Source of the DNA: Mustelus asterias
Lineage: Eukaryota
Reading direction: 5' to 3'
Length of the DNA stretch: 64,000 bases
Assembly (NCBI RefSeq): GCF_964213995.1
Contig: NC_135823.1
Location: forward strand, 20,832,001-20,896,000
How positions within the stretch are numbered: position 1 is the first letter of the stretch; each line of letters opens with the position of its first letter. Shown piece by piece: positions 586 through 30,528 of the stretch. The notes under the pieces were generated by a model. That model was not told the origin of the DNA and made no database searches. It was given only the letters and a program-made list of their open reading frames with translations. The position numbers and the translations under genes were made by a program.

Positions 586-1435
586 ATTAAACTTTTAATT
601 CCAGATTTGTATTGAATTCAAATTTCGCCATCTGCTGTGGTGGGATTCGTAATAGGGTTCCCAGAGATGTCCTGGATCTCTGGATTACTAGCCCAGTGAC
701 AATACCACTGCTTCCCCTGTACAATCGGGGGGGGCTGGGTGGTGGGGTGGAGATCTTCAAGATGGCCCCAATCCCGTTTGTAAAAATTCCGTTCTGTGTC
801 CACTGGGGAGATGATGGCCTCGTGATATTATCGCTAGACTATTAATCCAGAAACTCAACAAATGTTCTTGGCACCTGGGTTCGAATCCCGCCATGGCAGA
901 TGGTGGAATTTGAATTTGATTTTTTAAAAGAATCTGGAATTAAGAATCTACTGATGACCGTGAAACCATTGTCGGAAAAACTCATCTGGTACACTAATTT
1001 CCTTTAGGGAAGGAAATCTGCTGTTCCTTTCCTGGTCTGGCCTACATGTAACTCCAGAGCCACAGCAATGTGGTTGACTATCAACTACCCCTCGAGGGCA
1101 ACTAGGAATGGGCAATAAATGCTGGACAGCCCATATCCCATGATTGAATTTTTAAAAATTGCATACCGGAGGAAAGGGTATTGGGAAAGAAAACAATTAA
1201 TCTGCAATGAGGAATCTTTATTTAGTGTTATTGGAGGTGAACAGTCAGAAGCGTCAAATTCCCTGCCATTTATGCAAGTTGGCAATTTCCACATTTTCTT
1301 TCTTATTTAAGCATGTCTCACAGAGCCTCATTGAACAGAGAAAGACAAAGATATTTTCTGTTCCTTGCCTCCCTCTTTAAACTACAAGTTGGGATAAAAT
1401 GCCAATTTTAATTCTGTGTATTCTTTTTGATTCAG

Positions 1436-1581
1436 GATTCTGGATACGATGTTGAGCTGTTTGAGAATGCCCCTGACCCTGAGTTCATCTGTACCATCTG
1501 TCACGGTGTGCTCAAAAACCCGGTGGAACTTGGCTGCCAGCATGTCTTCTGCAAAAGCTGCATTGCAAAGTGGCTTACAGA
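1436..1581 (+). CDS. RNF151: RNF151-like RING finger protein, first visible coding exon (the ATG exon was not located, probably upstream of the window)
   Basis: ttcag|GAT...GA|gtaaag; translates DSGYDVELFENAPDPEFICTICHGVLKNPVELGCQHVFCKSCIAKWLT, a C3HC4 RING start resembling RNF151 (GYDLNLF...CSVCHGVLKRP); neighbour of RPS2 as in human. Confidence 0.9.
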
Positions 1582-1833
1582 GTAAAGACTTCTTGCTCAT
1601 TTTTAAGAGTTCCTGGGGTATTTCAGTGTGTGTGTATGCCTGTACCTGGAGACTTCTGTATGAAATGCTATGTTTGAAAGTGAGGGTCTGTGTTTAAACT
1701 ATGGTTAAAAATGATGAAATATTGCTTTTGCTAAAGTTTCTATTGTTGAGTGAATTTTGACACATCTTGCATCTATATTGAAATATGTGGGAAGATTTTC
1801 AGCTGTTGCTCTTTAAGAGTACACTTGAGATGT

Positions 1834-2024
1834 AAAAGCAAATTACTGCGGATGCTGGAATCTGAAACAGAAAATGCTGGAAAATCTCAGCAGGTCTGAC
1901 AGCATCTGTGGGGAGAGGATAGAGCCAATGTTTCGAGTCTAGATGACCCTTTGGGTGATGAAAGGTCATCTAAACTCGAAACATTGGCTCTATTCTCTCC
2001 CCACAGATGCTGTCAGACCTGCTG
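1834..2024. mobile_element. Short Penelope-type non-autonomous element, fold-back copy
   Basis: About 65-bp near-perfect inverted repeat around 1952-1958; flanking acacttga..tgt direct repeat. Confidence 0.7.
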
Positions 2025-2816
2025 ACACTTGATGTGTCATGCATGCTGTTAGCTCACAGTCAAATAGCAAACTCCTGGGGCCATTTCCTATTGAAAAATA
2101 TTTTTCTCCCCCTTTCCTGCCTCGACCCCACCTGATTAGCACTGCTGCCTCACAGCGCAAGTGTTCAATTCCGGTCTCCACACTGTGTGGAATTTGCATG
2201 TTCTCCCAGTGTCTGGGTGGGTTTCCTCCAGATGCTCCAGTTCCCTCCCACAGTCCAAAGATGTGCGGGTTAGGTTGATTGGCCATGCTAAATTAACCCT
2301 TAGTGTAAGGGAGACTAGCTAGGGTAAATACATGGGGTTATGGGGATAGGGCTTGGGTAGGATTATTGTCAATGCAGGCTTGATGGGGCTGAATGGCCTC
2401 CTTCTGCACTGTAGGGATTCTATGATTCTATCTGATTGGATTTGAATTTAGATCACAAGGTCAAAGAACACTACTGACTTGGCTGCACTCCCCTCATAAA
2501 CGTTTAACAGTAAATGCACTTTATTTAGGAATTTATGTCTTTCCAGTAGATGCATATCCATCCTTGAGCATTTTTTTTTGAAGTAGAGATTTAAATATTA
2601 AGTTTATCTCCAATTCCATAACATCTTTCCCTGCTATGGCTTCACACATGCTTATGGTGAAAGCTCTTATTTATAGTTCATATGACCCTAAATTTGCATA
2701 TTGCCTCCCCTTCTCTTCTCTCTCTCTCTCCCCCAACCCCCCAAAACTAGGGTTTCGATAGGTGTACTTATTAACTTTTGCTTCCAGGATGCTGGAGACA
2801 GAGAAATGAGTTGTAT

Positions 2817-2948
2817 AAAAGCAAATTACTGCGGATGGCGGAATCTGAAACAAAATCAGAAAATGCTGGAAAATCTCAGCAGGTCTGACAGTGTCTGCGG
2901 AGAGAGAAACCGAGCTAATGTTTTGAGTCTGTATGACTCTTTGTCAGA
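2817..2948 (-). mobile_element. Short Penelope-type element (same family)
   Basis: aaaagcaaattactgcggatg...gactctttgtcag; flanked by cagagaaat(g/a)agtt. Confidence 0.7.
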
Positions 2949-3759
2949 GAAATAAGTTATCTCCGGCGTATTGCTGTGCAGTAACACTGCTCCACAATAT
3001 ATCGTTAGACACAACTGGGTACAGTTCACTTATCACTAATCAAATAGAGTAGTAAGGTTCAAATAAAAACACAGCTTATTCAATTATTAACAATGTCAAG
3101 TTGGCTGAGACGGTTGAGGGTTGCTTCTCCCATCTGTCTAAGGAGAGAGAATGGGGAGGACAATGGGTGGAGGAAGCAGGATGTTTTTGCCCTAAGATTG
3201 GATGAGTCATAGAGATGTACAGCACAGAAATGGGCCCTTCGGCCCAACTCGTCCATGCTGACCAGGCTTCCTAAATTGATCTAGTCCCGTTTGGCCCATA
3301 ATCGCACTAAGCCTTTCCCACCCATGTACCTGTCCAAATGTATTTTAAATGTTGTAATTGTGCCCGACTCTACCACCTCCTGGAAGCTTGTTCCATATAC
3401 ACACCACCCTTCTGAAAAAATTACCCCTCGGGTTCCTTTTTAAACCTTCCTGCTCTCACCTTAACCCTATGCCCTCTAGTTTTGGACTTCCCTGGGGAAA
3501 AGACTATGCCTCTTATAAACCTCTATAAGGTTACCCCTCATCCTCCTACGCTCCAGGGGAAAAAAAGTCCCAGCCTATCTGAAAGTATGTTTTGAGGGAT
3601 ACATTTGAATGTACTTTAGGAGACTGATGTGATCTAAATCTTTAACTTGTGGCTCGTATATAAAATGGTAGTCAAAAAAAAATTGTTTGCAAAGTATATT
3701 AATAGTTCCAGGTGTCCTATGGAATAATGAATTAACACGTCAATTGGTGAAGATGTTTT

Positions 3760-4072
3760 CGGCATGGTGGCAGTGGTTGGCACTGCTGCCTCACAGCGCC
3801 AGGGACCCGGGTTCAATTCCTGGCTTGGGTCACTGTCTGTGCGGAGTTTGCATATTCTCCCCATGTCTGTTTCTTTTGGGTGCTCCGATTTCCTCCCACA
3901 ATTCAAAGATGTGCGGGTTAGGTGGATTGGCCATGCTGAATTGTCCTTTAGCGTCAGGGGGGCTAGCTAGGGTAAATGCGTGGGGTTATGGGGATAGGGC
4001 CTGGGTGGGATTGTGGTCGCTGTAGACTCGATGGGCCAAATGGCCCCCTTCTGCACTGTAGGAGTCTATGAT
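3760..4072 (+). mobile_element. HE1-type V-SINE, representative of roughly 28 full or partial copies in the window
   Basis: tRNA-like head (TGGCACAGTGG A box, GGTTCRATTCC B box), V-domain ctgtgtggagtttgcacgttctccccgtgtctgcgtgggtttcctccgg, gattctat tail; other copies near 2130, 5138, 11645, 21387, 25030, 38775, 43362, 44925, 46710, 48515, 49203, 49960, 50325, 52703, 60400, 63253. Confidence 0.9.
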
Positions 4073-4148
4073 TCACATTGTTCCTGAATACATTGTTACA
4101 ATCACAATGTGGGTTTGCATTTGCCTAACATAATATAATTCCCTTCAG

Positions 4149-4245
4149 GAAGAAGGAGTGTCCTTACTGCAGGAAGAAGGTGCGGAGTGTGGCTCGATCC
4201 GTGATACCCATGATCCACAACCTGATTGGTCGATTGATCATGAAG
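4149..4245 (+). CDS. RNF151: RNF151-like exon (end of RING)
   Basis: cttcag|G...AAG|gtaagc, 97 nt, phase-compatible; (E)KKECPYCRKKVRSVARSVIPMIHNLIGRLIMK supplies the last CxxC pair. Confidence 0.9.
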
Positions 4246-4709
4246 GTAAGCTGAGAGTTGAAGTTGTGTGAAGCTAATTGATATCGGCTACAATGGGACC
4301 TGCTTTAAAGAAGCCAGTGCACATCACTGTCATTGGTTTCCGTCCTGTGATTTCCCCCGGTCTTGTTTCTCACATCCGTGAGTGAAGGTGGAAAAATGCT
4401 GAGGAAATTTGCCCGGTGGGGAAGGAGCAAGTAAGAAACTTGCCTGGATAACTGGCTTTCCTGCGTCAATTTTGTTTGTACATTTTAAGGGTTGAAGGGC
4501 AGGTCTTCAGTCTGTCTTTTTTCATTTGGAAAGAAGTCCTAACTCTTTTTTTTGGATTGCGATCAGTGCTCTCAAAACTAGATCGTCGAATTTTGCAGTA
4601 CAAAATTCTGCCATTTGGTCCATCGTTCCCTGTACCAGCTCTTTGAAAATGTGATCCAATCTGTCCCCTCTACTTGCTCTTTGCCTAACCACTCTACACC
4701 ATTTTCCTT

Positions 4710-5110
4710 GAGGGGAGAGATGGTGGTGCAGTGGTAATGCCACTGGATTAGTAACCCAGAGGTCCAGGCTGATGTTCTATGAACGTGGGTTCAAATCCCA
4801 CCGCGACGGCTGGTGGAATTTGAAATTCAGTTAATACGTTTTCTTCTCAAATCTGGAATTGAAAGCTCATCTTAGTAGGAATGACCTTTTCAAAAAGGAA
4901 AACCTATCTGGTTCACAAATGATCTTTAGGGAAGGAAATCTGTTGTCCTTACTTGGTCTGGCCTACATGTGTCCCCAGACCCACAGCAATGTGATTGACT
5001 CTTAACTGCCCTCTGAAAAGGCCTAGTGAGCCATTCGTTCAAGGGCAATTAGGAATGGGCAACAAATGCTGGCCCAGCCAGCGATGCCCACATCCCATGA
5101 ATGACTAATT
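4710..5110 (+). mobile_element. Second tRNA-derived SINE family (also about 805-1160)
   Basis: tggtgcagtggtaatg...gggttcaaatccc head, ggaaggaaatctg...ggtctggcctacatgtg core; tail aagggcaattaggaatgggcaacaaatgctggcc shared with LINE 3' ends in the window. Confidence 0.75.
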
Positions 5111-5468
5111 TTTAACAATTCTCCTGTTTTATTTTTTGGGGGCAGCATGGTGGTTAGCACTGCTGTCTCACCGCCAGGGACCCAGGTTCGATTCCCGGCT
5201 TGGGTCACTGTCTGTGTGGAGTTTGCACGTTTCCCCCGTGTCTGTGTGGGTTTCCTCCCACAGTCCAAAGGTGTGCAGGTTAGGTGGATTGGCCATGTTA
5301 AATTGCCCCTTAGTGCTAGGGGGATTAGCTTAGGGCAAATGCATTGGGGTAAATGGGGATGGGGCCTGGGTGGGATTGTTGTTGGTGCAGACTCGATGGG
5401 CTGAATGGCCTCCTACTCTGTAGGGATTCTATGATAATGGCTCTTGGCTCTCCGCTTCTGTAATGCAG

Positions 5469-5859
5469 TGTGAAAACCTTGTCTATGGTTGCCGGGAGAC
5501 GTTTCCCCTTGAACAGTACACGAGGCATAAAGCTGCTTGCGAATTTAGGATGGTCAGATGCAAGCATGAAGCCTGTACCACCGAAGTCTTTCAGAAGAAC
5601 CTTGCTGCTCATGAACAAGTTTGTGAACATTGGAGCCAGTCTTGCAGAATGGGATGTGGAGCCCAGCTTACCCAGATCCAGCTGGAGGAACACAACTGCT
5701 ACCGGGACGCAAAGAAAAAGTACAAGGAAAAGATAGCTCTTCTCAGAAGTCGGTTGTGCAGGATGCACCATCGCCTGAAGCTATTTGAAGGGATCATTCA
5801 GGATTGGGTCTCGGATGATCACTTGCAGTTTACCGATCCTACTGCCTATGAAGATGATG
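5469..5859 (+). CDS. RNF151: RNF151-like exon (TRAF/SIAH-type zinc fingers and coiled coil)
   Basis: tgcag|TGT...GAT G|gtgagt; CENLVYGCRETFPL...CRMGCGAQL...HNCYRD resembles RNF151 CPLGCGATL...HNCYRE. Confidence 0.9.
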
Positions 5860-5984
5860 GTGAGTAACTATATGGCTCAACACACAATTAATTAGTTACT
5901 TGTGGGTAAAGTTGCAGGAGGGTGGCACAGCCAGTGATGCCCACATTCCATGAATGAATAATGTTTAAATTCTCTCGTTCTTTT

Positions 5985-17584: not shown

Positions 17585-19409
17585 AAGTGTTGGCATTGAA
17601 GTGCTTTTTTCATAAACTCAGCTAAGTATTCTTAAAACATGCTTCCATCACTCTTTGTGAAGAAAAATGAGCATTGACTGACTTTATATGCACATCCCTA
17701 CACTAAGCTGGTATCAATTCTCAATGTGTAGCTACTGCCTAAGGTATTTCAACTTCTAATTACCAGTGAGTTATTTTTCACATGCATGTCACTGGCAAGA
17801 CAAATTCATATTTGCCCACTAAGGTGTTGGTGAGCCACTGCAGATGCAGGTACACCCACAAAGCTGTTCGAAAGGGAGTGCCAGAATTTTCACTCAAAAC
17901 AACTGAAGAGATTATTTGGGAACTTGTGTCTGCTGACCTTGACTTTGTAGGTGGCAAAGGTCATAAGTTTGGGAAGGTGCCTTTTGACGGCTTGATGAGT
18001 TGCTGCAGTCATTGTTGAAGGGAGTGAATGTAGTGGATGGGGCACTGATCAAGCTTGACCTTGATGGTGTCAAGATCCTTGTGCTGTTGGAGCTGCACTC
18101 ATGTGTGGAGTATTCTAACACTCCTAAGATGTGTTTTGGATGGTGGTGGACAGACTCTGGGGAGTCAGGATGTAGTCACGCACTCTGGAACTCTGATTTG
18201 CTCTTGTAGCCACAGTATTTATATGGCTGTTTCGTAAGTATCTGGTGAATGGCAATCCCCAGGATGGTGATGGGGGAATTTAATAATGGCAGTGCCATTG
18301 ACAGGGAGAATACTATGTCACTTGTCAGCTCAAATGTGAATGTTGTCTAGGTTAACTGTTACATTGACTCACCTTGTGTTACTGAACACTTTCCTCTTCT
18401 GACAAGGTCACTGAAGGAACCTCGTGGAATGATTGGCCTCCAACAATCACATCTAACTTACTTTTGTGCGAAGTACAACTTCAAGTGGCACCAACTTCAA
18501 TTTTGCTGGGACCCCTTGATGCCAAAGGCAATCACTCATCTTAGGGTTCTCAATTTGAAAGACTGCATTCATGCAAGCAATACTTAACACACTTCCTACC
18601 GAGTGCAGAAATATTGCAGTATTATGCTTGAGTAGTGCTGTACTCATTTATGATTCACTCCAATAAGATTTCTAACTTTGAAGTCAAGTATCATTTGCTT
18701 ATTAAACATAAATGCTTGAACAGTGAGTGGTTTTTTTAAAAAAAAGTGAATTAAGTTTACAAATTGTGCAGCATTCATACATTATTGGAACTGATATATG
18801 TAAAGCACTTAAAATAACATTGAGAACTGGAACCATGTAAGGAATTTAGTCAAACTTGCCTTGATTGCTTTATTTTACATTAACAGCATTATAGAAATAC
18901 ATAGTTTAAAATAGTACATATGAAAACTTAACAGCCATAAAGTAAACTTCAGATAATTAAAAGGGTTGGAAATCTGGTTAGCAGCACTTGTCAGGGGCAG
19001 AGAAGAGTTAAATAGTTACATCACTTATTTACAGCCTTTATTTTAGTAAAAACTACATATCTCTGTATCCGTGGAGAGAGTTAGTGTTTTGAGTCCTATA
19101 TGCCTAACTTTTATTTCAGATTTTCAGCAGCCACAGTATTTTGATTTTTAAACATATCTTCACAAAACCTGAACAAAGACATTCTAGAAATAAAGGCAGT
19201 GCATGAAGCTTAAAGTGTGGTGCAGCTCAGCTGCCAACCACATTCAGAGGGGCTCAGTGCAAAGTGTGCTGGTTATCTCTCCTCTCTGCCACCCACCCCC
19301 CAAAACCACATCAGCTCTTTGGTCAGTGGTGGACCTGTGACCAAGTAGCTGAGGAAGACAGCCATATTGCCAGTTCTTATAATGCCCATAGGATATGCTG
19401 GGCAGGGGG

Positions 19410-20620
19410 CATGAAGACCCAAGACATTTTATTTATTTTTGGTTGTGATGTACACTTAGCAATGTAGTTTTGTTTTCTCTCATTGCACATAATCTGTTGT
19501 ACCTACAATGAATTTCCACTAAGAAAAAAAAATCATTCTAGTCTTCGGAGCCTAGCTTCGGTTTGGCTGAAAGTTCATTTCCTTATTTGATGCCAGACTT
19601 CTGATTCTAAAGACCATACCTGTAACCGACAACAAAAATTAAATCACAAATTAAAACGCACAACTGCAAGTAAAAAATGCTCTCAAAAAAGGAGTTGTAA
19701 CAAAAGTTATTTATTGGCACACGGGTTTTATTGACCACAAGCAACACAGAAGTGGGCAATAAGCTTTAGTGTGCCTTTTAATGTAGGCACTCTTATCTTA
19801 CCCACAGTAACTAATAATGCTGTTGGTAACTTTCAGAGGGTGCCATGGGTCACACTAGTAACAAGTCTCAACACCGGGTTACTGTCCAACACCGGCATCT
19901 CCACATCATGGGTCACACTACCCAGTTCACAGAGCACATGGCGCCAGGTTCTGAACTAGGTCATTGGTAATAGTGACAATTTCTATAAAATATAGATTAA
20001 TGCCAGGCTCCAGATAGTTATTTGACAGGAGTGGCACTCATTTTAGACATGGCAGATATACCCATGGTCAGCAAAGAAAATGAACTCACTTTGGGGCCAT
20101 GAAGACAGGTTTCACCATTTGCAGGTTGTATTTCCACCCCAATACATTTAAAGTTAACATTTAGAAGACTTTAACCAGGGTATAATTAACACCATCGCTT
20201 TTTAATAAATGTGAAAATTATTTTCTTAATTTCACAAAACATTTCATATTAAAGTGATGGGGAGTTTATTTTGGAATTACAAAACACCTTAGCTTGAAAT
20301 GAACAAAAAAGATGTTTAACAATGTTTTTTGTTGTTAAAAATATACTTTATTTGTAAAATTTTAAAAGGCTGTAATCAGCTACAGTAACTACAACACTTA
20401 CCCCAGCGCACCGTCTTCACTGCCTCTTAAACAGCAGCAAATACTATTTATAGGGCGGTGAAATGCTCACCCTAAATCTGAATAACACAGAAAACAAAGG
20501 CGCTTCTTGAATACGTCTCTAATGATCTATGCACGATCTGGGGTCTGCACTCGCTCTTTGGAAACCCCAGAATCTGAATAATACAGATAACAATGATAAT
20601 GCAGACAGTAAGGGGAAATG
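19410..20620 (-). ncRNA. SNHG9: SNHG9-like non-coding snoRNA host transcript (ends approximate)
   Basis: Minus-strand donor GG|gtaagt at 20401-20396, acceptor ttttgttgtcggttacag| at 19620, AATAAA near 19430; the intron contains an H/ACA snoRNA; divergent from RPS2 exon 1 as in human. Confidence 0.55.
19709..19845 (-). ncRNA. SNORA78: H/ACA box snoRNA, SNORA78 (ACA64)-like
   Basis: Hairpin ggcaccctct...agagtgcc, H box ACATTA (19784-19779), hairpin ggcacac...gtgtgcc with pocket GCT/AAACCC, terminal ATA+3 nt; about 90 nt upstream of a 3' splice site; syntenic with human SNORA78. Confidence 0.8.
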
Positions 20621-20629
20621 ATATATACT

Positions 20630-20830
20630 CGGTCCGGAGTCCCCGGCGAGAGCTGGTGTGAGGTCTCGCGAGATTCCGGAGGCTTTAAGTAGGCCGCGCG
20701 GGCCGACCTCCGGCCTCTGACTGAAAATTATCACGTAAGTGGCGGCAGTTGGGAGCGGCGGCAATCGGTGTAAAATCAGAGCCATCCGCCTGCCAGCGGC
20801 TCAGATAAAGGCTGCAAAATACCCGGCCGG
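20630..20830. promoter_or_regulatory. CpG-rich bidirectional promoter RPS2/SNHG9 with TCTCGCGAGA palindrome
   Basis: Dense CpG; perfect TCTCGCGAGA at 20664-20673 (motif typical of ribosomal-protein and housekeeping promoters); tttaagta at 20684. Confidence 0.75.
20705..20734 (+). other. RPS2: RPS2 non-coding exon 1 (start approximate)
   Basis: Pyrimidine-rich cctccggcctct start followed by ...tatcac|gtaagt donor at 20735; exon 2 begins caaATG. Confidence 0.6.
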
Positions 20831-22576
20831 TCTTAATAAAGCGTCTCGTGTGATTATTTAGTGTTTTTAACGTGAAAGGGAATGGATGATGAGGGAGTTT
20901 GGTGGGGAGCTGGCTCCATGTTTGCCTGGGACTGGCGGCATGCCCACATTTACTTGGATAGACCCCCTCTCTTTACTCTGCAGTGAATTTTCCGGATTAA
21001 AATTCACCTTGAACCGAAGCTGATGGGAGTGAGAGGAGGTGTGGATGTTGGCCGCTCACCCACATGGAGTTGGGCCCTCAGATTGCTGCAGCCTGAAGGA
21101 TAAGCACTTCTCAATCCTGCCTCTCACTGTGTGTGTAAAACAAAAAGGGAATAATTCAACCAGGATAAACCCAGGATCTTCCAATCCTGTATTACAGAAA
21201 GCCAGTGGAGGAATAATCTCACCCTGCCATTGTGAAATGATATTTTGAGGCTCTGGTTGACCTGAATTGTTGTCTTTATCCTGAACTGCTTTCATATCTG
21301 TGCAGGAGTGGTTCTGCTTTCAGTATGTAGAGGACATAAATGAAATGTATAACACTATAGCCATCAGAATGAGGCTACGGTTATGGGTAATACAATGGCT
21401 AGCACTGCTGCCTCATAGCGCCAGGGACCTGAGTTCAATTCCGGCCTCGGTCACTGTGTGGAGTTTGTACATTTTTCCCCGTGTCTGCGTGGGTTTCCTC
21501 CGGGTGCTCCGGTTTCCTCCCACAGTCCAAAGATGTGGGGGTTAAGTGGATTGGCCATGCTAAATTGCCCCTTAGGGTCAGTAGGGTAAATTATGGGGAT
21601 AGGGCCTGGGTGGAATTGTTGTCGGTGCAGGCTTGATGGGTTTATACATGTAGGGATTCAATGATATCTGCAGGAGTGGTTGTGCTTTCAAAATGTAGAG
21701 GACAAATAAAATGTGTAAAGCTATAGCCATCTAAATGGAGGCTACGGTTATGACAGGACAGTAGTTTTGGAGCCAAGTGTTAATGGTCTCGCCCCAAGAA
21801 TTCAGAGGTTTGTGTGCTAAATTATCACCCTTTGTTGGACTGCCAGCCTTCGTGCAATACACCCTGTACGCCAAGTATGGTGATAGCTTTCAGATGAGAT
21901 GTTGAACTGAGACCTTATCTGTCTCTGTAGGTGGGTGTCAGATTTCATTGCTCTACCTCAAGTACAGGGGTGGTGTCCTGCCTGATATTTTTCTCTGAAC
22001 CAGCATCCGTACACCTGAGCTATCATCATTATCTCATTACCATATTGCATGTTGACTGCCATGCCGTGAGGCTATGAAAGGGACTATATAAATTAAGCAG
22101 AGTAGGATGATGGGGGCAAAGATCAGTACCTTTGGCTCTGTCACGCAGCTATCCAGATTCAGCCTCTAAGCTTTTCCTTTTAAAGTATCCAATTCCTCAC
22201 AGAAAGTTAGTTTTGAATCTGCTTCCATCAACCTTTCAGGTGGTGCAGCAGTTTGAGGTGGTGACCTTTTGAAAGTCTTCAAAATTGAAGTGTTTCAAAC
22301 TCAGGGTCATTCGCACTGACAGTACGATCACTGTACATAAGTAATGATTCAGATTGTGATCGACACAGATAAAGTTGAAAGTGCTGATACGAAAATGATT
22401 TGTGTTTTCGTGCAAGTACTGCATTAGTTGTTGTGGAAACAGCCCCTGGTATAGAATGTGATTTGAACAGCAACCATGTCAAAAATTAGTGCCACTCGAA
22501 ATGCTTCCAAAATGATGAATGTGCTGCGACGGGAGCTTTTGATCGCTTAATAAACTTCACCTTTGTGTTGCAGCAA

Positions 22577-22711
22577 ATGGCGGACGACGCCGGTGGTAGA
22601 GGAGGTTTCCGCGGTGGCTTTGGCTCTGGTGGTCGTGGGCGGGGCCGAGGCCGCGGTAGGGGCCGGGGCAGAGGCCGTGGTGCCCGTGGTGGAAAGGCTG
22701 AAGATAAGGAG
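22577..22711 (+). CDS. RPS2: 40S ribosomal protein S2 (uS5), first coding exon
   Basis: [16 protein letters not shown]...[12 protein letters not shown]|gtaaga; RG-rich N-terminus. Confidence 0.98.
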
Positions 22712-22826
22712 GTAAGATACGACGTCAGCGTAAATTTGTGCAATGAGTTTGGCAATTAATGTACTTAAAATTCATTGTTTTGGCATGAGCCCCTGAAACG
22801 TCTTCCCTTTCATTCTCCCTTCACAG

Positions 22827-22916
22827 TGGGTGCCAGTAACTAAGCTTGGGCGTTTGGTGAAGGACATGAAGATCAAAACTCTGGAGGAAATTTACCTCTT
22901 CTCCCTCCCTATCAAG
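22827..22916 (+). CDS. RPS2: RPS2 exon
   Basis: [30 protein letters not shown], ag/gt flanks. Confidence 0.98.
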
Positions 22917-23018
22917 GTAATATTTGAGATATTTTCCACCTTGTAAATGCCTGCCAGCTTTAGTAAATCTACCTTTTGCAGTGGGCATTACTCTTATATA
23001 ATTCCCCTTTCCGTCTAG

Positions 23019-23126
23019 GAGTCTGAAATCATTGACTTCTTCCTGGGATCAGCATTGAAGGACGAGGTTCTGAAGATCATGCCTGTACAGAAGCAAACTC
23101 GTGCCGGTCAACGTACAAGATTCAAG
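23019..23126 (+). CDS. RPS2: RPS2 exon
   Basis: [36 protein letters not shown]. Confidence 0.98.
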
Positions 23127-23282
23127 GTATGTTTATGCCTGCCTGTTGGCAATTCTTTTAATTCCTCAACCTTTCTTCCGCAGGAAAGAAGTTTGGAACG
23201 GCATTTTAATGACAAACCTTTATCCTGCAGGAAAGAGGTTTGGAACGGCATTTTAATGACCCTCTTTTTAACATCTTTTCAG

Positions 23283-23456
23283 GCTTTTGTTGCTATTGGT
23301 GACTATAATGGACATGTTGGATTGGGTGTCAAATGTTCCAAGGAAGTGGCCACCGCCATTCGCGGAGCCATCATTCTGGCAAAGCTGTCGATCATCCCTG
23401 TAAGGAGAGGCTATTGGGGTAACAAAATCGGAAAGCCTCACACCGTACCATGCAAG
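23283..23456 (+). CDS. RPS2: RPS2 exon (GC donor)
   Basis: [36 protein letters not shown]...PHTVPCK|gcaagt. Confidence 0.97.
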
Positions 23457-23866
23457 GCAAGTACGAATATGGTTGATGTCTACTGTGTGCAGTGGTCAGC
23501 AGTGCATGTGAAGCAAAATAAATACTTTCATTTAACGGGGTTTCAGTATTGACCCTGTAGAAAGAGTATAGAGAATACCTGGTATCGCACAAATAAACAG
23601 CTGCCATGCTTCTTCATTTTGTGCTTTAGCTGCATTCAGTGAAGGAGTAAATCAGTGTTACAGGGTAGCCGATCATGGGAAAACTTAGCAAAATCTGTTC
23701 TGTTTGTATGTGTATTGGTTGGTTCTTCGTTGATGAGAATTGCTTGGAATTTGAACTGCCCAGTAACCGGGTGTCTACTTGGAGAAAATGTTTGAATTGC
23801 ATTTATTTCTGGGGATTCTGTTTTTTGACATGTCTCAATGCTGTAACAATTTCTTAACTTTTCCAG

Positions 23867-24026
23867 GTGACTGGCCGTTGCGGTTCAGTCTTGGTGCGTC
23901 TAATCCCTGCACCCCGTGGTACTGGTATTGTCTCAGCTCCTGTACCCAAGAAACTGCTTCAGATGGCTGGTATCGATGATTGCTACACCTCGGCCCGAGG
24001 TTGCACAGCCACACTGGGCAACTTTG
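23867..24026 (+). CDS. RPS2: RPS2 exon
   Basis: [54 protein letters not shown]|gtaagt. Confidence 0.98.
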
Positions 24027-24312
24027 GTAAGTGTAACTACAGTGTCAGGAAAAAGACTTGTGCTGTGTTGCAGTGATGTTTGTATTTCACCCTTTTGGAG
24101 TGGAAGTGGTGAGGGAATTGTGAAGATCAGGCCAGTTCTATTTGTCTTCTGTAATTTTGTTCTACCTTCTGTTTGAAGGTAGAACAAAAAGAGATTAGAC
24201 TTACAGACAAGTCTAAAATTGTCAGAAAAGGTGGCTGGCTACCGGCATCTCCACATCATGACTATGTATAAGGCCATTCTGATTGCATCTGACTCCCCTT
24301 ATATGACTGAAT

Positions 24313-24442
24313 GCCTCTCAGCTCTGCACAGTTTAACCTGCTGGTGGTATAATTGGCATATTATGAGAGGGAAATTAATGGAGTATGCACGGCAGCTAAG
24401 CCTTTTGTGTGGTTTACCTGTTCCATTTGAAATCCAACATAA
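24313..24442 (+). ncRNA. SNORA10: H/ACA snoRNA, SNORA10/SNORA64 family
   Basis: cctctcagctctgc...tgagagg hairpin, H box AAATTA (24372-24377), second hairpin with atgcacggcag...ctgttcc, ACA at 24437-24439; RPS2 introns host SNORA10/SNORA64 in human. Confidence 0.8.
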
Positions 24443-24535
24443 AACTTATTTAAGTTTATTGATTTGTATCACAAGCATTAACACTAATGAAGTTACTGTG
24501 ATAGACCTTGAAGCTCCATTTTGATATCATACTGA

Positions 24536-24673
<138 letters not shown>

Positions 24674-25531
24674 TGAAAACTTACTTTTCTTTCAGGAACA
24701 TGATTTCTTTCAAAGTGTGAAGAAATTTGAAAATTATTTTCATTTAGTTTGAAGTGATCCTTTGCTTTCACTGTACCACAGCTGCTAATCTGTATTGTAA
24801 CATATCATCAACCTCTTCTTGCTTCTGAGGTCTTGTCCCCTTGTTACAAAAATCTCATCAATCCCCCAGCAACATGGTTTTTTTGTATGAAAATTCGTTG
24901 TGAAATCAACATAACCTGCTTTTCAATTTGCTTCATTGTCTAGCCCATCCCCTTAACAACAAGCCATGATATATGCATTCCTCAAATCCTGGTCCCTTTG
25001 CACATCCTAGATTTTAATTGGTCCACCATTGATGGCACAGTGGTTAGCACTGCTGCCTCACAGCGCCAGGGACCCAGGTTCAATTCCGGCCTCGAATCAC
25101 TGTTTGAGCGGAGTCTGCACATTCCCCCTGTGTCTGTGTGGGTTTCCTCCGGGTGCTCCAGTTTCCTCCCACAGTCCAAAGATGTGCGGGTTAGGTTGAT
25201 TGGCCATGCTAAATTAACCCTAGTGTCAGGGGACTTGGGAGGGTAAATACATAGGGTTACGGAGATAGGGTTTGGGTGGGATTGTGGTCAGTGCAGACTC
25301 GATGGGCCGAATAGTCTCCTGCACTGTCGGGATTCTATGACAGCCGTGCCTTCAGCTTCCTAGCCCTCCGTTCTGGAATTCTCTGCAATCCTCCATGTCT
25401 TGTACCATTTTCTCCTTTGAACAGCTCCTGAAAACCCAATTCTGCTATTATTTCCTTCTGGTTCAGTGTGATTATTTTTGATAATGCTTGTGTGGAGCGG
25501 TTTAGGATGTTTAACTGTTGAAAGTGCTATA

Positions 25532-25962
25532 CTTGAAAGGGCTTAGTTATGAGGAGAGATTGGGTAAACTGGGGTTGTTCTCACTGGAAAGACGGAGGAT
25601 GAGGGGTGACCTAATAGAGGTGTATAAAATTATGAAAGGCATAGATAGGGTGAACGCTGGGAAGCTTTTTCCCAGGTCGGTGGTGACGTTCATGAGGGGT
25701 CATAGGTTCAAGGTGAGGGGGGGGAGGTTTAACACGGATATCAGAAGGACATATTTTACGCAGAGGGTGGTGGGGGCCTGGAATGCGCTGCCGGGCAAGG
25801 TGGTGGAGGCGGACACACTGGGAACGTTTAAGACTTATCTAGATAGCCACATGAACGGAGTGGGAATGCAGGGATACAAAAGAATGGTCTAGTTTGGACC
25901 AGGGAGCGGCGTGGGCTTGGAGGGCTGAAGGGCCTGTTCCTGTGCTGTTTTGTTCTTTGTTC
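25532..25962 (+). mobile_element. CR1-type LINE 3' fragment, young
   Basis: Open frame LKGLSYEERLGKLGLFSLERRRMRGDLIEVYKIMKG...RVVGAWNALP; ttgttct tail. Confidence 0.9.
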
Positions 25963-26654
25963 TATAAGAATGAAGTTGTTGGTGCTGTGGGGCATTCATG
26001 TGATCTTTCACTGTTTTGAAAATTCCCTCTTTCCTCCGAGATCTGATTAAACACTTTATTTTGCAGTAAGGGTGGCCACAGCTCTCGCACCGTTGATTTA
26101 CCCAGCAGCTTCTCAATGGAAACTTGTCTCCACTGACAGCCCAATTGATTTCCTCAGAAGCTCCTCAATGGGCTACAAACTGGCCACTCAACCCTGCTGG
26201 AAAGTGGGGTTATTTGAACTGAGAGGCGTGTGCCTAGAGCTTGTTCAATCAGTTTAAATACATTTCTCCAGATGTCACTAATCTTTGTCCTTCTGACGGT
26301 ATATTTTGGAAGACCTGTAAAGAGTTACAGAGCCCAGGTTGAGAATCCCTGACCTATATCATTTCTATATATACATAGAATTCCTACAGCGCTGGAGGCG
26401 GCCATTGGCCCATTGTGCCTGCACCGATGACAATGTATCGAAACTCAGTGAATTTACCCTGCTAATCCCTCTGACACTAAGGGACAAATTTAGCATGGCC
26501 AATCCACCTAACCTACACATCTGGAGCAAACATTCTGTAGCAAACATTCACATCCTCTTTGTTTTCTTTCTTTTTCATAAGGCTAACCAGTTTTTTGTTG
26601 CAGTATTTTATAATGTGCAAAGCATGCTCTAACGTTATCTCTTTTCCCTTTTAG

Positions 26655-26735
26655 GAATTCACTGATCATCTGGCCAAGACCCACACCCGCGTGTCTGTTC
26701 AAAGATCCCAGTCAGCTGTTGCTCCAGCCACATAA
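26655..26735 (+). CDS. RPS2: RPS2 last exon
   Basis: EFTDHLAKTHTRVSVQRSQSAVAPAT*; AATAAA at 26751; joined CDS is 840 nt, 279 aa. Confidence 0.97.
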   Translation, partial: EFTDHLAKTHTRVSVQRSQSAVAPAT

Positions 26736-28399
26736 AGCATTTATGCAAAAAATAAAATAAAGATCTGTTGCCCATGATCTTGTGTTTGTCATCTTTTTGC
26801 TTTGGGTAGGACTGGATTTGATGGGGGAAATGCTTTAACAGATCAAAAAATTGGCACTAATGAAGATTGCTGACTCTTCTCATGGCCTGAGCATTTTTAA
26901 TTTTAATGTAAATGTTCCTTCCATCCATACCATCAGCTTGAAATATCAATAATCAATGAACTGTATGCTGCTGATAACCACTTCTATCACTGCCTCAGCT
27001 CAAATCCTCAACCAGGCGTCTGAACTATTGATTGTTATTGCAATGTGCTGCTGATTGGTTGGCCTCCAAACTTGCACTGTTCAAACTTCAGCTCCTAATT
27101 GGGATGCTCCCATTGAGCCATTATCCCTGTCCTCATAACATTGGCTTCTGGGCTGGCATTGTTTTGATTTTAAAATTCTCAGCCTTACCCCTCTGATAGC
27201 ACTGAATAGTCTGAAATGGCATTCTCAGAACTGAGGATTGGATTTGAGGATTGCAAATGTTCCACCTGTTTGAAAAAGCGATTAACTAATAGTTACAGAG
27301 CAGTCAGCCTGAAGTTGGCAGGGAATCTTAAGTGATAGTACAGAACAAAAAACTATGGGGTAATTAAAGCATGTATTAAAGCAAGTATTTGACTAACTAG
27401 ATTATTTGAAGTAGTGATGAGGATTGTGTGGTTGATGGGCATTGGACTTAGGGGTGTGTGTGTGTGAAGTGACCTTAGCAAAACTACAGTCCACAAATTA
27501 CTGGCAGTGTGGGTATACAAAATGGATGGAAAGCAGAGTAGTGGCAAACAGTTGCTTTTCCTGGACTAATACTATAGTGATCCCCAAGAGTCAGCATTAG
27601 AACTACTGTTTCTGATATAAAGACCTGAACTTGGGTGGAGGCAAAATCTGATTCCAAAATGTATGGATGACATGAAACTTGGAAATGCAGTAAACAATGG
27701 GAACCATGGTAATAAACTTCAGGGGATGTAGACAGACTTGTGAAGATTCGCGACATGAAATTTAGTGTAGAGAAGTGTGAATTTTGTTACAAAGAATGAG
27801 TCAATAACAAAGTGAATAATACAATTTTTGAGAATGCATCTCATACTTTGTTTTTTAATGCTCCTGTGAAGTGTCTTGGGATACTTGGATTGAAGGTGAA
27901 CAGAGAGACCTGAGGATGAGTACACAAATCCTCACAGGTGGGAGAATTGGCTGAAAAGCAACCCTCCACTTTATCAAAATATTAACACACGGGAAGTTTG
28001 ATAAACCTTTGCAGAACACTGATTTGGCCTCACCTGGAGTACTGTATCCATTTCTGGACAGCACACTAGGAAGTTATCAAGTCTTGAGAGGGTGCAGATG
28101 AGGATTATTACAATGGCATAACAGATGAAAGACCTCAGTTATCTTGAGAAATTGGGGTTAAATAAAGATGCTCAAAATCAAAGGGTAGAGTTTTTACAAT
28201 CTGATGCATTCTTCAAAGGGTAGCAGAAGCAGGTTGATAATACAATTGCCCCGAAATGGAATTTAATTAAGCGGATAGATTTACCACAGTTGGCACAGGC
28301 ATATCAGACTGAATCAAACATTGAGATTGAGATTGAAAACCTGTTTTAGAACACTTGCATAGTTAATTTCAGCAGCAGATCTCCAGTGATGCTTTCCTG

Positions 28400-28497
28400 G
28401 AAGACAAAGGGTCATCCGGACTCGAAACGTCAGCTCTTTTCTCTCCTTATCGATGCTGCCAGACCTGCTGAGATTTTCTAGCATTTTCTCTTTTGGT
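28400..28497 (+). mobile_element. Short Penelope-type element (same family as 1834)
   Basis: gacaaagggtcatccggactcgaaacgtcagctc...; 14-bp TSD tccagtgatgcttt at 28382 and 28498. Confidence 0.75.
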
Positions 28498-28893
28498 TCC
28501 AGTGATGCTTTGTTTCCTTCTATTGCTAATTGCACAAGGAGTTATTCTTAGGCCTCACCTTTTGATTTATAGACAGTTTTCTGATGTAATTAGGTCTCTA
28601 TAAATATTATGAACAGCAGATCACTTTTCTGGCTGCTGGACAGCAACAGGGTTTGTAATTAAAGACTAAAGAATTCATCACTTCCCTGCACAAGTACAGG
28701 GAAAGACAAAAAACATGTAATCGAAAAACATTATGGGTTATGCACTATTTATTGTTTAACAGGTCCATGTATTTTGTCACATTCATGTGAAATTCAGCAT
28801 TTTTCACAATTTAAAGACATTCAGACTGTACATTATAGGTGAAGGTTTGTCACAAACAAATTTTAAAAATGATTTTCTAGTGGATTGTGGTGC

Positions 28894-28991
28894 TTAGGCT
28901 TCAGATGCCGTTTTTTCTCTTTCCTCAATCATCCGATGTTTTTGTTTCATTAGGCATCGTCTAGCACTGCCATAAGCCCCCAAATCACCAT
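28894..28991 (-). CDS. NDUFB10: NADH:ubiquinone oxidoreductase subunit B10, exon 4
   Basis: (Y)GDLGAYGSARRCLMKQKHRMIEEREKTASEA*; minus-strand AATAAA at 28753-28748. Confidence 0.96.
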
Positions 28992-29029
28992 CTGCAAAAA
29001 GGGAAAAAAGCAGTGAATTGAGAACAGAT

Positions 29030-29860
29030 GTCATTGTTTCTATTCAAATTATCACCTAACGCAATCTTGAATTCCTCGATTGAACCTGCTTCCACCACAC
29101 TCCCAGGCTACGCATTCCAGATCCAAACCACTTGCTACGTGAAAAAGCTTTTCCTCACATCACATTTGCTTCTTTTGCAAATCTGTCCTCTGGTTCTCGA
29201 TCCTTTTATGAGAGAGTACAGTTTCTCCTGATCTACTGCATCCAGTGCCTCCATGATTTTGAACATCTCTATCAAATCTCTTCACTGAAGTTTCTCATCC
29301 CTGGAACCATTCTTATAAACCTCTTCTGCACTCTCTCCAACGTGTTCAGATCCTTCCTATAGTGTGGTGCACAGAACTATACACAATACTCCAGGTGAGG
29401 TCTAACTCGTGTCTTGCATAAGTTCAACATAACCTTATTGTACTCTATGCCCCTATTAATAAAGCCCAGAAGAATGTATGCCTTAACTGCTCTCTCTACC
29501 TATCCTGCCACTTTCCATGATCTGCATATATACATCCAAACCCCTCTGCTCCTGCACCCCCTTAAGAATTGTATCCCTCATTTTATATTGTTTCTCCATG
29601 TTCTTCCTACCGAAATGAATCACTTCATACTCCTCCATCTGGCACCTATCTGCCCATTGCACCAACTTGTCTGTATCCTTGCTTCCAATTTTTGTGTCAT
29701 CCGCAAACTTTGAAATGATCCCCTGCACACCCAGGATCTAGATCATCAATATATATCAGGAAAAACAAGGTCGAACCCTGGGGACTCCACTTTAAGCCTT
29801 CCTCTGTGAGCTATAACCTTTCAAATCTGTGGTCAAATGCCTTATGGAAGTCCATGTACA
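29030..29860 (-). mobile_element. Degenerate CR1 LINE fragment
   Basis: ISKFADDTKIG reverse transcriptase motif in ORF 29483-29728. Confidence 0.85.
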
Positions 29861-30528
29861 CCACAAATGACCACAGGATGTTGTCAAGCACTTTATAACT
29901 AATGAACTACATTTGTGAAATGTCACCATTACAATGTAGGAAACACAGCAGCCAATTTGCATACAGCAAACTCCCCCAACAATAATAACCAGATGATCAT
30001 TTTTTTGGCGATGTTGATTGAGGGATAAATATTGGACAGGACACCAGAGAACCCCCATGCTTTTCTTCAATATATCCCACATCATAGGATCTCCCACCTA
30101 TGGAACATGTGGGAATGTTACCTTTAATATACAGAAACATAGACAAGTCGTTAACTGATCTATTCTAGAAATGTCCACCCCTCCAAATTGTTTTCCTGGT
30201 GTTCTAATCATTAGCCCCAATGTCAGTTGGCTAAAACATTTGCGGTATAATTTCTTAGGAGTTGACAGCAGCTTTTCTCTCCAGCAGCACTCTCCAGGTA
30301 TATCAATGAGATCTTGCAGTTTCACAACATGTATCAGTAAACTACAGATCATTTCAACATTTACAGGGCAAAGCCCTCTACCCACAAATACTAACAAGAG
30401 TGGAGCAAACCCTGGGCTGGGTGCTTGGAAGAGATTTTGTTAGACAAGATACAATTCCAATTATTATGGCACATTAGATTGATTATAAGGTCACACATAC
30501 AAATGACCAGCTTGCAAGCATGACTTAC

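Follow-up and report, generated by a model that had tools for sequence, protein, structure and literature searches.

The locus described here raises the question of whether SNORA78, an H/ACA snoRNA carried in human and mouse by the non-coding host SNHG9, has a counterpart in a cartilaginous fish, and of how it would be produced there. The sequence-only reading had described a well-formed H/ACA RNA of the SNORA78 type within the window, i.e. the whole stretch of 64 kb that was analysed, and had proposed a covariance-model search. In this search, positions 19709-19841 of the minus strand match the Rfam family ACA64 (RF01225) with a score of 67.7 bits (gathering score 35; E 6.9e-12), and the match covers the full model (positions 1-128 of 128). 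It is the sole Rfam match at gathering score within the window; other weak matches to miRNA and lncRNA families were below the cut-off and were dropped. A search of the animal's own genome (3.68 billion bases) with RF01225 gives one match, at the RPS2 locus (a lower bound, with 48 candidates scored). The elements of the RNA and of its immediate surroundings are as follows.

19709..19845 (-): H/ACA snoRNA, almost certainly the SNORA78/ACA64 orthologue; the Rfam match spans 19709-19841 and the fold lengthens the first stem to about 19844
19795..19836 (-): 5' pocket, made up of strands 19836-19829 and 19798-19795, able to pair with the animal's own 28S around U3088, which is predicted to correspond to human 28S-4266
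19779..19784 (-): box H with the sequence ACAUUA, located in the hinge, from the fold and box inspection
19722..19764 (-): 3' pocket, made up of strands 19764-19762 and 19728-19722, able to pair with the animal's own 28S around U3153, which is predicted to correspond to human 28S-4331
19712..19714 (-): 3' box, AUA variant instead of ACA, 3 nt from the 3' end, from box inspection
19880..19915 (no strand assigned): short high-copy repeat, upstream of the snoRNA within the predicted intron

The RNA folds into two hairpins, leaving hinge and tail open (fold z -3.06; 4 of 200 shuffles are equally stable), and its G+C content is 0.40. The hairpin-hinge-hairpin-tail order, with a box H of the ANANNA type and a 3' box of the ACA type, is thus found in the shark RNA. 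The family match, the fold and the boxes leave very little doubt that this is the elasmobranch orthologue of SNORA78.

The AUA box and the high-copy repeat inserted about 35 nt upstream of the snoRNA might be the marks of a decayed SNORA78 remnant whose expression has been lost. However, Zhang et al. 2009 (PMC2770669) cloned chicken ACA64 (Ggn119, EU240332), which by eye shares both pocket motifs with the shark RNA and likewise ends with an AUA box plus 3 nt. An AUA box can thus not be read as a mark of decay. Both pockets and both stems of the shark RNA are intact (by eye, the upper 5' stem shows a C-G to U-A exchange between chicken and shark), and it is the sole copy found in the genome. 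A decayed remnant is thus highly improbable, and an intact guide RNA is the reading that we retain.

The targets of this guide were predicted with an rDNA unit taken from the animal's own genome, the 18S, 5.8S and 28S sequences being scanned for uridines flanked by pairing with the pockets. At 14 nt from box H, the 5' pocket has 28S U3088 as its best target (4 + 8 bp, one G-U, score 11.5), the runner-up scoring 6.5. For the 3' pocket, likewise set 14 nt from its box (AUA), the best target is 28S U3153 (7 + 3 bp, one G-U, score 9.5), with just 3 bp on one side, and the neighbouring U at 3146 follows with a score of 9.0. Both distances fall within the 14-16 nt expected for such pockets. The pocket registers were picked from nine tried and then fixed for the shuffle test, in which the number of dinucleotide-shuffled rRNA sets scoring as well was 0 of 300 for the 5' pocket, 7 of 300 for the 3' pocket and 0 of 300 for the two together.

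Jorjani et al. 2016 (PMC4914119) list SNORA78 as RF01225/ACA64, hosted by SNHG9, as the sequence-only reading had stated for human, and directed at 28S-4266 by its 5' stem and 28S-4331 by its 3' stem. Deryusheva et al. (PMC6984369) assign the identical two targets and add a frog gene. U3088 and U3153 are 65 nt apart, exactly as human 4266 and 4331 are, and it is on this spacing, together with the published target list rather than an alignment to human 28S, that their predicted equivalence is based. The shark RNA is hence predicted to guide pseudouridylation at both uridines. Pseudouridine 28S-4266 was long an orphan and has recently been assigned to the 5' pocket of SNORA78; the 12 base pairs retained at the canonical distance in the shark support this assignment independently, by comparison between species.

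The neighbouring genes give the position of the snoRNA.

20713..26737 (+): RPS2, with a short non-coding exon 1 (inferred start, donor at 20735) and seven coding exons, open frame of 279 aa
1433..5837 (+): RNF151 exons (gene region to 5863)
30.5-33.8 kb (-): NDUFB10
from 44.6 kb (+): gene of the ribosomal protein L3 family (RPL3 or RPL3L)
30-62 kb to the left of the window (-): TBL3

The putative snoRNA host and RPS2 lie on opposite strands with adjacent 5' ends, within a neighbourhood formed by the RPL3-like gene, NDUFB10, RPS2, RNF151 and TBL3. The head-to-head arrangement that had been claimed is indeed present, since the minus-strand snoRNA points away from an intact plus-strand RPS2 across the most CpG-rich stretch of the window. 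In human, NDUFB10, RPS2, TBL3, RPL3L, SNORA10, SNORA64, SNHG9, SNORA78 and RNF151 are given within one interval of 33 kb (PMC10194716), and Jorjani et al. 2016 (PMC4914119) place SNORA78 on the plus strand. The synteny comparison proposed along with the sequence-only reading is therefore favorable, as NDUFB10, RPS2, RNF151, TBL3 and an RPL3-like gene also surround the shark snoRNA. Its attribution of the DNA to a cartilaginous fish also agrees with the genes: among 80 relatives of an NDUFB10 exon, the best five (84-75%) are from one shark, three rays and one skate, from which we conclude that the animal is an elasmobranch, and the one RNF151 match among two candidates is from a skate. Matches to the Pfam families Tymo_coat, TrAA12 and zf-CRD were below the cut-off and were dropped.

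One neighbour is oriented differently. In human, RNF151 runs in the same direction as SNHG9 and TBL3, whereas shark RNF151 (1433-5863, +) faces the predicted snoRNA host and points away from TBL3. This suggests a local inversion in one lineage. Six of the seven RPS2 introns are GT-AG and one is GC-AG (23457-23866, +, boundary AAG|GCAAGT). An RPS2 intron holds a short tandem duplication at 23160-23260 (+), two copies of about 50 nt which end in GGAACGGCATTTTAATGAC, and in intron 1 a direct repeat of about 80 nt (21304-21385 and 21668-21752, +) flanks a SINE-like element.

The published frog coordinates (PMC6984369) show snoRA78 (-) and snoRA10 (+) 6.6 kb apart and pointing apart, and SNORA64 is absent from that frog set. 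A similar layout is probably present in the shark.

24312..24442 (+): probable SNORA10-type H/ACA RNA, in the RPS2 intron 24027-24572, with a weak Rfam match

When the RPS2 gene is scanned de novo for boxes and hairpins, this is the sole locus returned. Its local score for SNORA10 is 18.5 bits, under the Rfam cut-off, and among several registers tried its 3' pocket matches 18S U202 with 3 + 7 bp; the published targets of SNORA10 are human 18S-210 and frog 18S-199. Searching the genome for the SNORA64/10 family gives nothing at E 1 among 43 candidates scored, so the assignment draws on the weak local score, the scan and the target match, which together make a SNORA10-type RNA probable. A second family member (SNORA64) was not found in RPS2, as in frog. 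The distance between SNORA78 and SNORA10 would be 4.5 kb in the shark against 6.6 kb in frog, and the frog layout agrees with the synteny seen here.

It remains to consider how the shark snoRNA would be made. Positions 18500-30000 were inspected by reading, as was the minus strand of 18800-21000. The minus-strand donor at 20401, the acceptor at 19620 and the poly(A) signal that the sequence-only reading had named are all found there, and they delimit the following putative host.

20445..20452 (-): TATA box TATAAATA, predicted core promoter of the host
20402..20421 (-): predicted exon 1, 20 nt, from the initiator-like GGCA(+1)GT at 20421 to the donor
19620..20401 (-): predicted GT-AG intron, 782 nt, with 89 nt between the end of the snoRNA and the acceptor
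19405..19619 (-): predicted exon 2, about 215 nt with an assumed 3' end; UGUA motifs at 19507 and 19454 precede the poly(A) signal
19428..19437 (-): two overlapping AATAAA signals (19433-19428, and a second copy to 19437)

The donor GGG|GTAAGT, with its G at 20401, has the highest score of all minus-strand donors within 19000-21500, on an approximate weight matrix. The acceptor TTACAG|, which ends at 19620, is one of five minus-strand acceptors that pass the filter in 18800-20400 and the first of them downstream of the snoRNA. Its pyrimidine fraction is 0.69, compared to 0.75-0.94 at the RPS2 acceptors (values for RPS2 that carry a small offset error). A donor-like sequence, CAG|GTATGG at 19616-19621 (-), abuts this acceptor, ranks third among the donors and could double as one.

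A donor, an acceptor and an AATAAA at comparable distances are found at 73 of 2134 background anchors (about 3%) in 144 kb of both strands, 7 of the 73 being at the SNORA78 locus itself. These three signals by themselves are therefore modest evidence, and the same figure leaves some room for the idea that they occur by chance and that the snoRNA is released from an unspliced, independent precursor devoid of real host exons. Chicken ACA64 was indeed termed intergenic, with an apparently unique transcription unit, by Zhang et al. 2009 (PMC2770669). However, this term was based on protein-coding annotation, and the human and mouse orthologues are both hosted by SNHG9 (PMC4914119, PMC10688608). 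The snoRNAs are described as intronic, in mammals at least (PMC4408788), and in the shark the best donor lies directly behind a TATA-initiator pair. An independent precursor is accordingly unlikely, and we return to a spliced host.

The TATA-initiator pair was not named by the sequence-only reading, and its presence before the donor strengthens the case for a host. From the TATA box at 20452 to the initiator A at 20421 there are 31 nt, and the donor follows after 20 nt. Counting both strands, the window and 80 kb of flanking sequence make up 288 kb, in which 88 TATA matches reduce to 9 that have an initiator 29-33 nt away, and these to a single one with a strong donor within 100 nt, the host core, a rarity which flatters the model because the criteria were chosen after the sequence was seen. 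A looser version of this search gives two sites, and only the host locus has the acceptor and AATAAA as well. That the snoRNA has a spliced non-coding host of some structure is quite likely; the exact two-exon model is only somewhat favored.

The CpG-rich region between the two genes, at about 20450-20900, bears on the place where such a host would start.

20664..20673 (no strand assigned): palindrome TCTCGCGAGA (CGCG element), the sole exact copy in the window

The most CpG-rich 300-nt stretches of the window contain TCTCGCGAGA; they have 24 CpG and an observed/expected ratio of 1.1-1.2, compared to 0.38 window-wide. The TCTCGCGAGA element is described as a driver of bidirectional transcription in CpG islands (PMC6192621), and it is present in roughly one in four promoters of human ribosomal protein genes (PMC10813206). 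In the shark, the inferred RPS2 start is about 40 nt away from it and the predicted host start about 240 nt. With distances so unequal, two cores served by one upstream element are a better fit than a single start region common to both genes. The claim that the host would start from the same TCTCGCGAGA CpG promoter as RPS2 thus holds in part: the CpG region and TCTCGCGAGA do lie between the genes, and the element may serve both, but the antisense start is more likely at the host's own TATA-initiator core (20452/20421), about 240 nt away, than next to TCTCGCGAGA. A second TCTCGCGA-type motif occurs between TBL3 and RNF151, at L012:1951 (G000:C23:20823951), and a possible TBL3 promoter is the CpG-rich stretch at C23:20809901.

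The same region allows for a host with other exons. The intronic SNORA78 could belong to a spliced non-coding RNA which starts near 20600, behind a weaker TATATAT (20627-20621), and has an exon 1 of some 200 nt, or which uses other donors, other acceptors or a later poly(A) signal. In reporters, transcription usually starts 40-70 nt from a CGCG element (PMC6192621), and the 7-mer at 20627-20621 is TATA-like; alternative donors exist at 20470, 20089 and 19619, and further AATAAA sites at 19115, 19042 and 18874. On the other hand, the core at 20452/20421 fits both consensus motifs with a spacing of 31 nt and stands 20 nt before the best donor, and in a PRDX1 construct a TATA box beside the CGCG element fixed the start (PMC6192621). 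Other exons are less likely, and we keep the two-exon model as the working structure.

With this structure the spliced RNA would be about 235 nt long, a length which depends on the assumed cleavage site, and its ATG frames comprise one of 28 codons, which runs open to the assumed end, and others of 21, 16 and 5 codons. This predicted RNA lacks a closed ATG frame of more than 21 codons, and would most likely be a by-product. Exon 2 and the end of the intron are single-copy in the genome. SnoRNA hosts typically start at a pyrimidine (TOP); the A start predicted behind a TATA box in the shark differs from this pattern, and no strict TCT motif is found at either predicted start (host or RPS2).

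Four sequencing runs from one study, whose kind is not recorded, were compared with positions 19000-21300. They give no joint at the predicted splice sites, a result which counts neither for nor against the host; the three joints listed for this interval, and one further joint, begin in the repeat, at about 19907-19910. One small run, X3 (67 million letters, RNA or otherwise), yields an unspliced contig of 1521 nt; its alignment stops at 20421, where the host is predicted to start. This contig was not counted as evidence, since contigs cannot show starts and the 20-nt exon is shorter than the 31-letter words. The cover of X3 is missing from about 20463 to 20924.

Taken together, we give a probability of roughly 80% to the following reading: the locus encodes an elasmobranch SNORA78, antisense to and upstream of RPS2, which is produced from the single intron of a short non-coding SNHG9 counterpart and guides two 28S pseudouridylations. 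Transcription would be divergent, RNA polymerase II starting at the TATA-initiator core (20452/20421), across the shared CpG region from RPS2. Splicing would join the 20-nt exon to the polyadenylated exon of 215 nt, and the 782-nt intron would be trimmed down to the snoRNA. The snoRNP would then convert 28S U3088 and U3153 (human 4266 and 4331), and the shared promoter region would couple the supply of the guide with the output of a ribosomal protein.

The closest known system is the SNHG9 locus of human and mouse, which shares with the shark locus the snoRNA family, the two predicted 28S targets, the strand opposite RPS2 and the named neighbours. In mouse, Snora78 is flanked by Snhg9 exons, and the mature RNA has 183 nt, compared to 233 nt for human SNHG9 (PMC10688608); the predicted shark host, with two exons and about 235 nt, is of similar size. 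The shark locus differs in its AUA instead of ACA box, in its much lower G+C (0.40) and in the predicted 20-nt exon 1 behind a TATA box. Mouse Snhg9 has a CCAR2-binding activity and a role in lipid metabolism (PMC10688608). It is conceivable, although rather unlikely, that the miniature two-exon design and a mature size of about 200-235 nt have been kept since the split between sharks and mammals. If so, the spliced SNHG9 RNA would seem to be under selection in its own right, for instance for its CCAR2-binding role in mouse, and the shark RNA would be a natural probe for the functional core of SNHG9. The predicted shark gene model would offer an outgroup for the age of the role of mouse Snhg9 in lipid metabolism.

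Among bony vertebrates, chicken ACA64 and Xenopus tropicalis snoRA78 are the relevant relatives, and the frog gene has both targets assigned; the sources used here name no host for either gene. The shark locus is a phylogenetically older member of the known SNORA78 locus, whose divergent layout can be read from the published frog coordinates. By parsimony from human, frog and elasmobranch, the snoRNA and its position date to the jawed-vertebrate ancestor, which is the age that had been proposed. Jorjani et al. 2016 (PMC4914119) list the conservation of SNORA78 as "Tetrapodes and Teleostes", on a scale that has no jawed-vertebrate category, so sharks may simply be unsampled there. The documented range would now extend to elasmobranchs, together with the head-to-head link to RPS2.

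Such an extension would not surprise snoRNA specialists, as SNORA78 is known from tetrapods and teleosts and conserved non-coding hosts are an established class. Conservation across gnathostomes is described for GAS5, and SNHG1 is a likewise deeply conserved snoRNA host (PMC4408788); DANCR is reported in elephant shark (PMC12694859), and in mammals the class has highly conserved transcription (PMC4739325). The shark locus resembles these three hosts, whose exons align poorly, in its conserved snoRNA payload and position, and its own predicted exons may be equally hard to align. The three are multi-exon genes with transcript evidence, whereas the shark locus has one predicted intron, one snoRNA and a promoter region in common with RPS2.

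The literature searched contains no report of SNHG9 in a shark and no relevant paper on SNHG9 and zebrafish snoRNA, and seven supplement files of the DANCR study (PMC12694859) have no entry for SNHG9 or SNORA78. A degenerate 3'-hairpin pattern matched 66 loci in metagenome contigs, none of which (0/66) resembles the snoRNA or RPS2 by blastn; one of the 66 has a loose 5' signature, and none of the 20 sent to Rfam matched ACA64. These loci were considered as possible vertebrate SNORA78 copies and are all taken as chance matches. Automated annotation of shark genomes based on Rfam probably marks SNORA78 already. A comparison of lncRNAs in 17 species, reportedly made by Hezroni in 2015 and including elephant shark, could already list a shark SNHG9 host.

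Outside the window, an intronless copy of NDUFB10 (L007, G000:C2:153599316-153599669, +) has one stop within the match and is probably a processed pseudogene.
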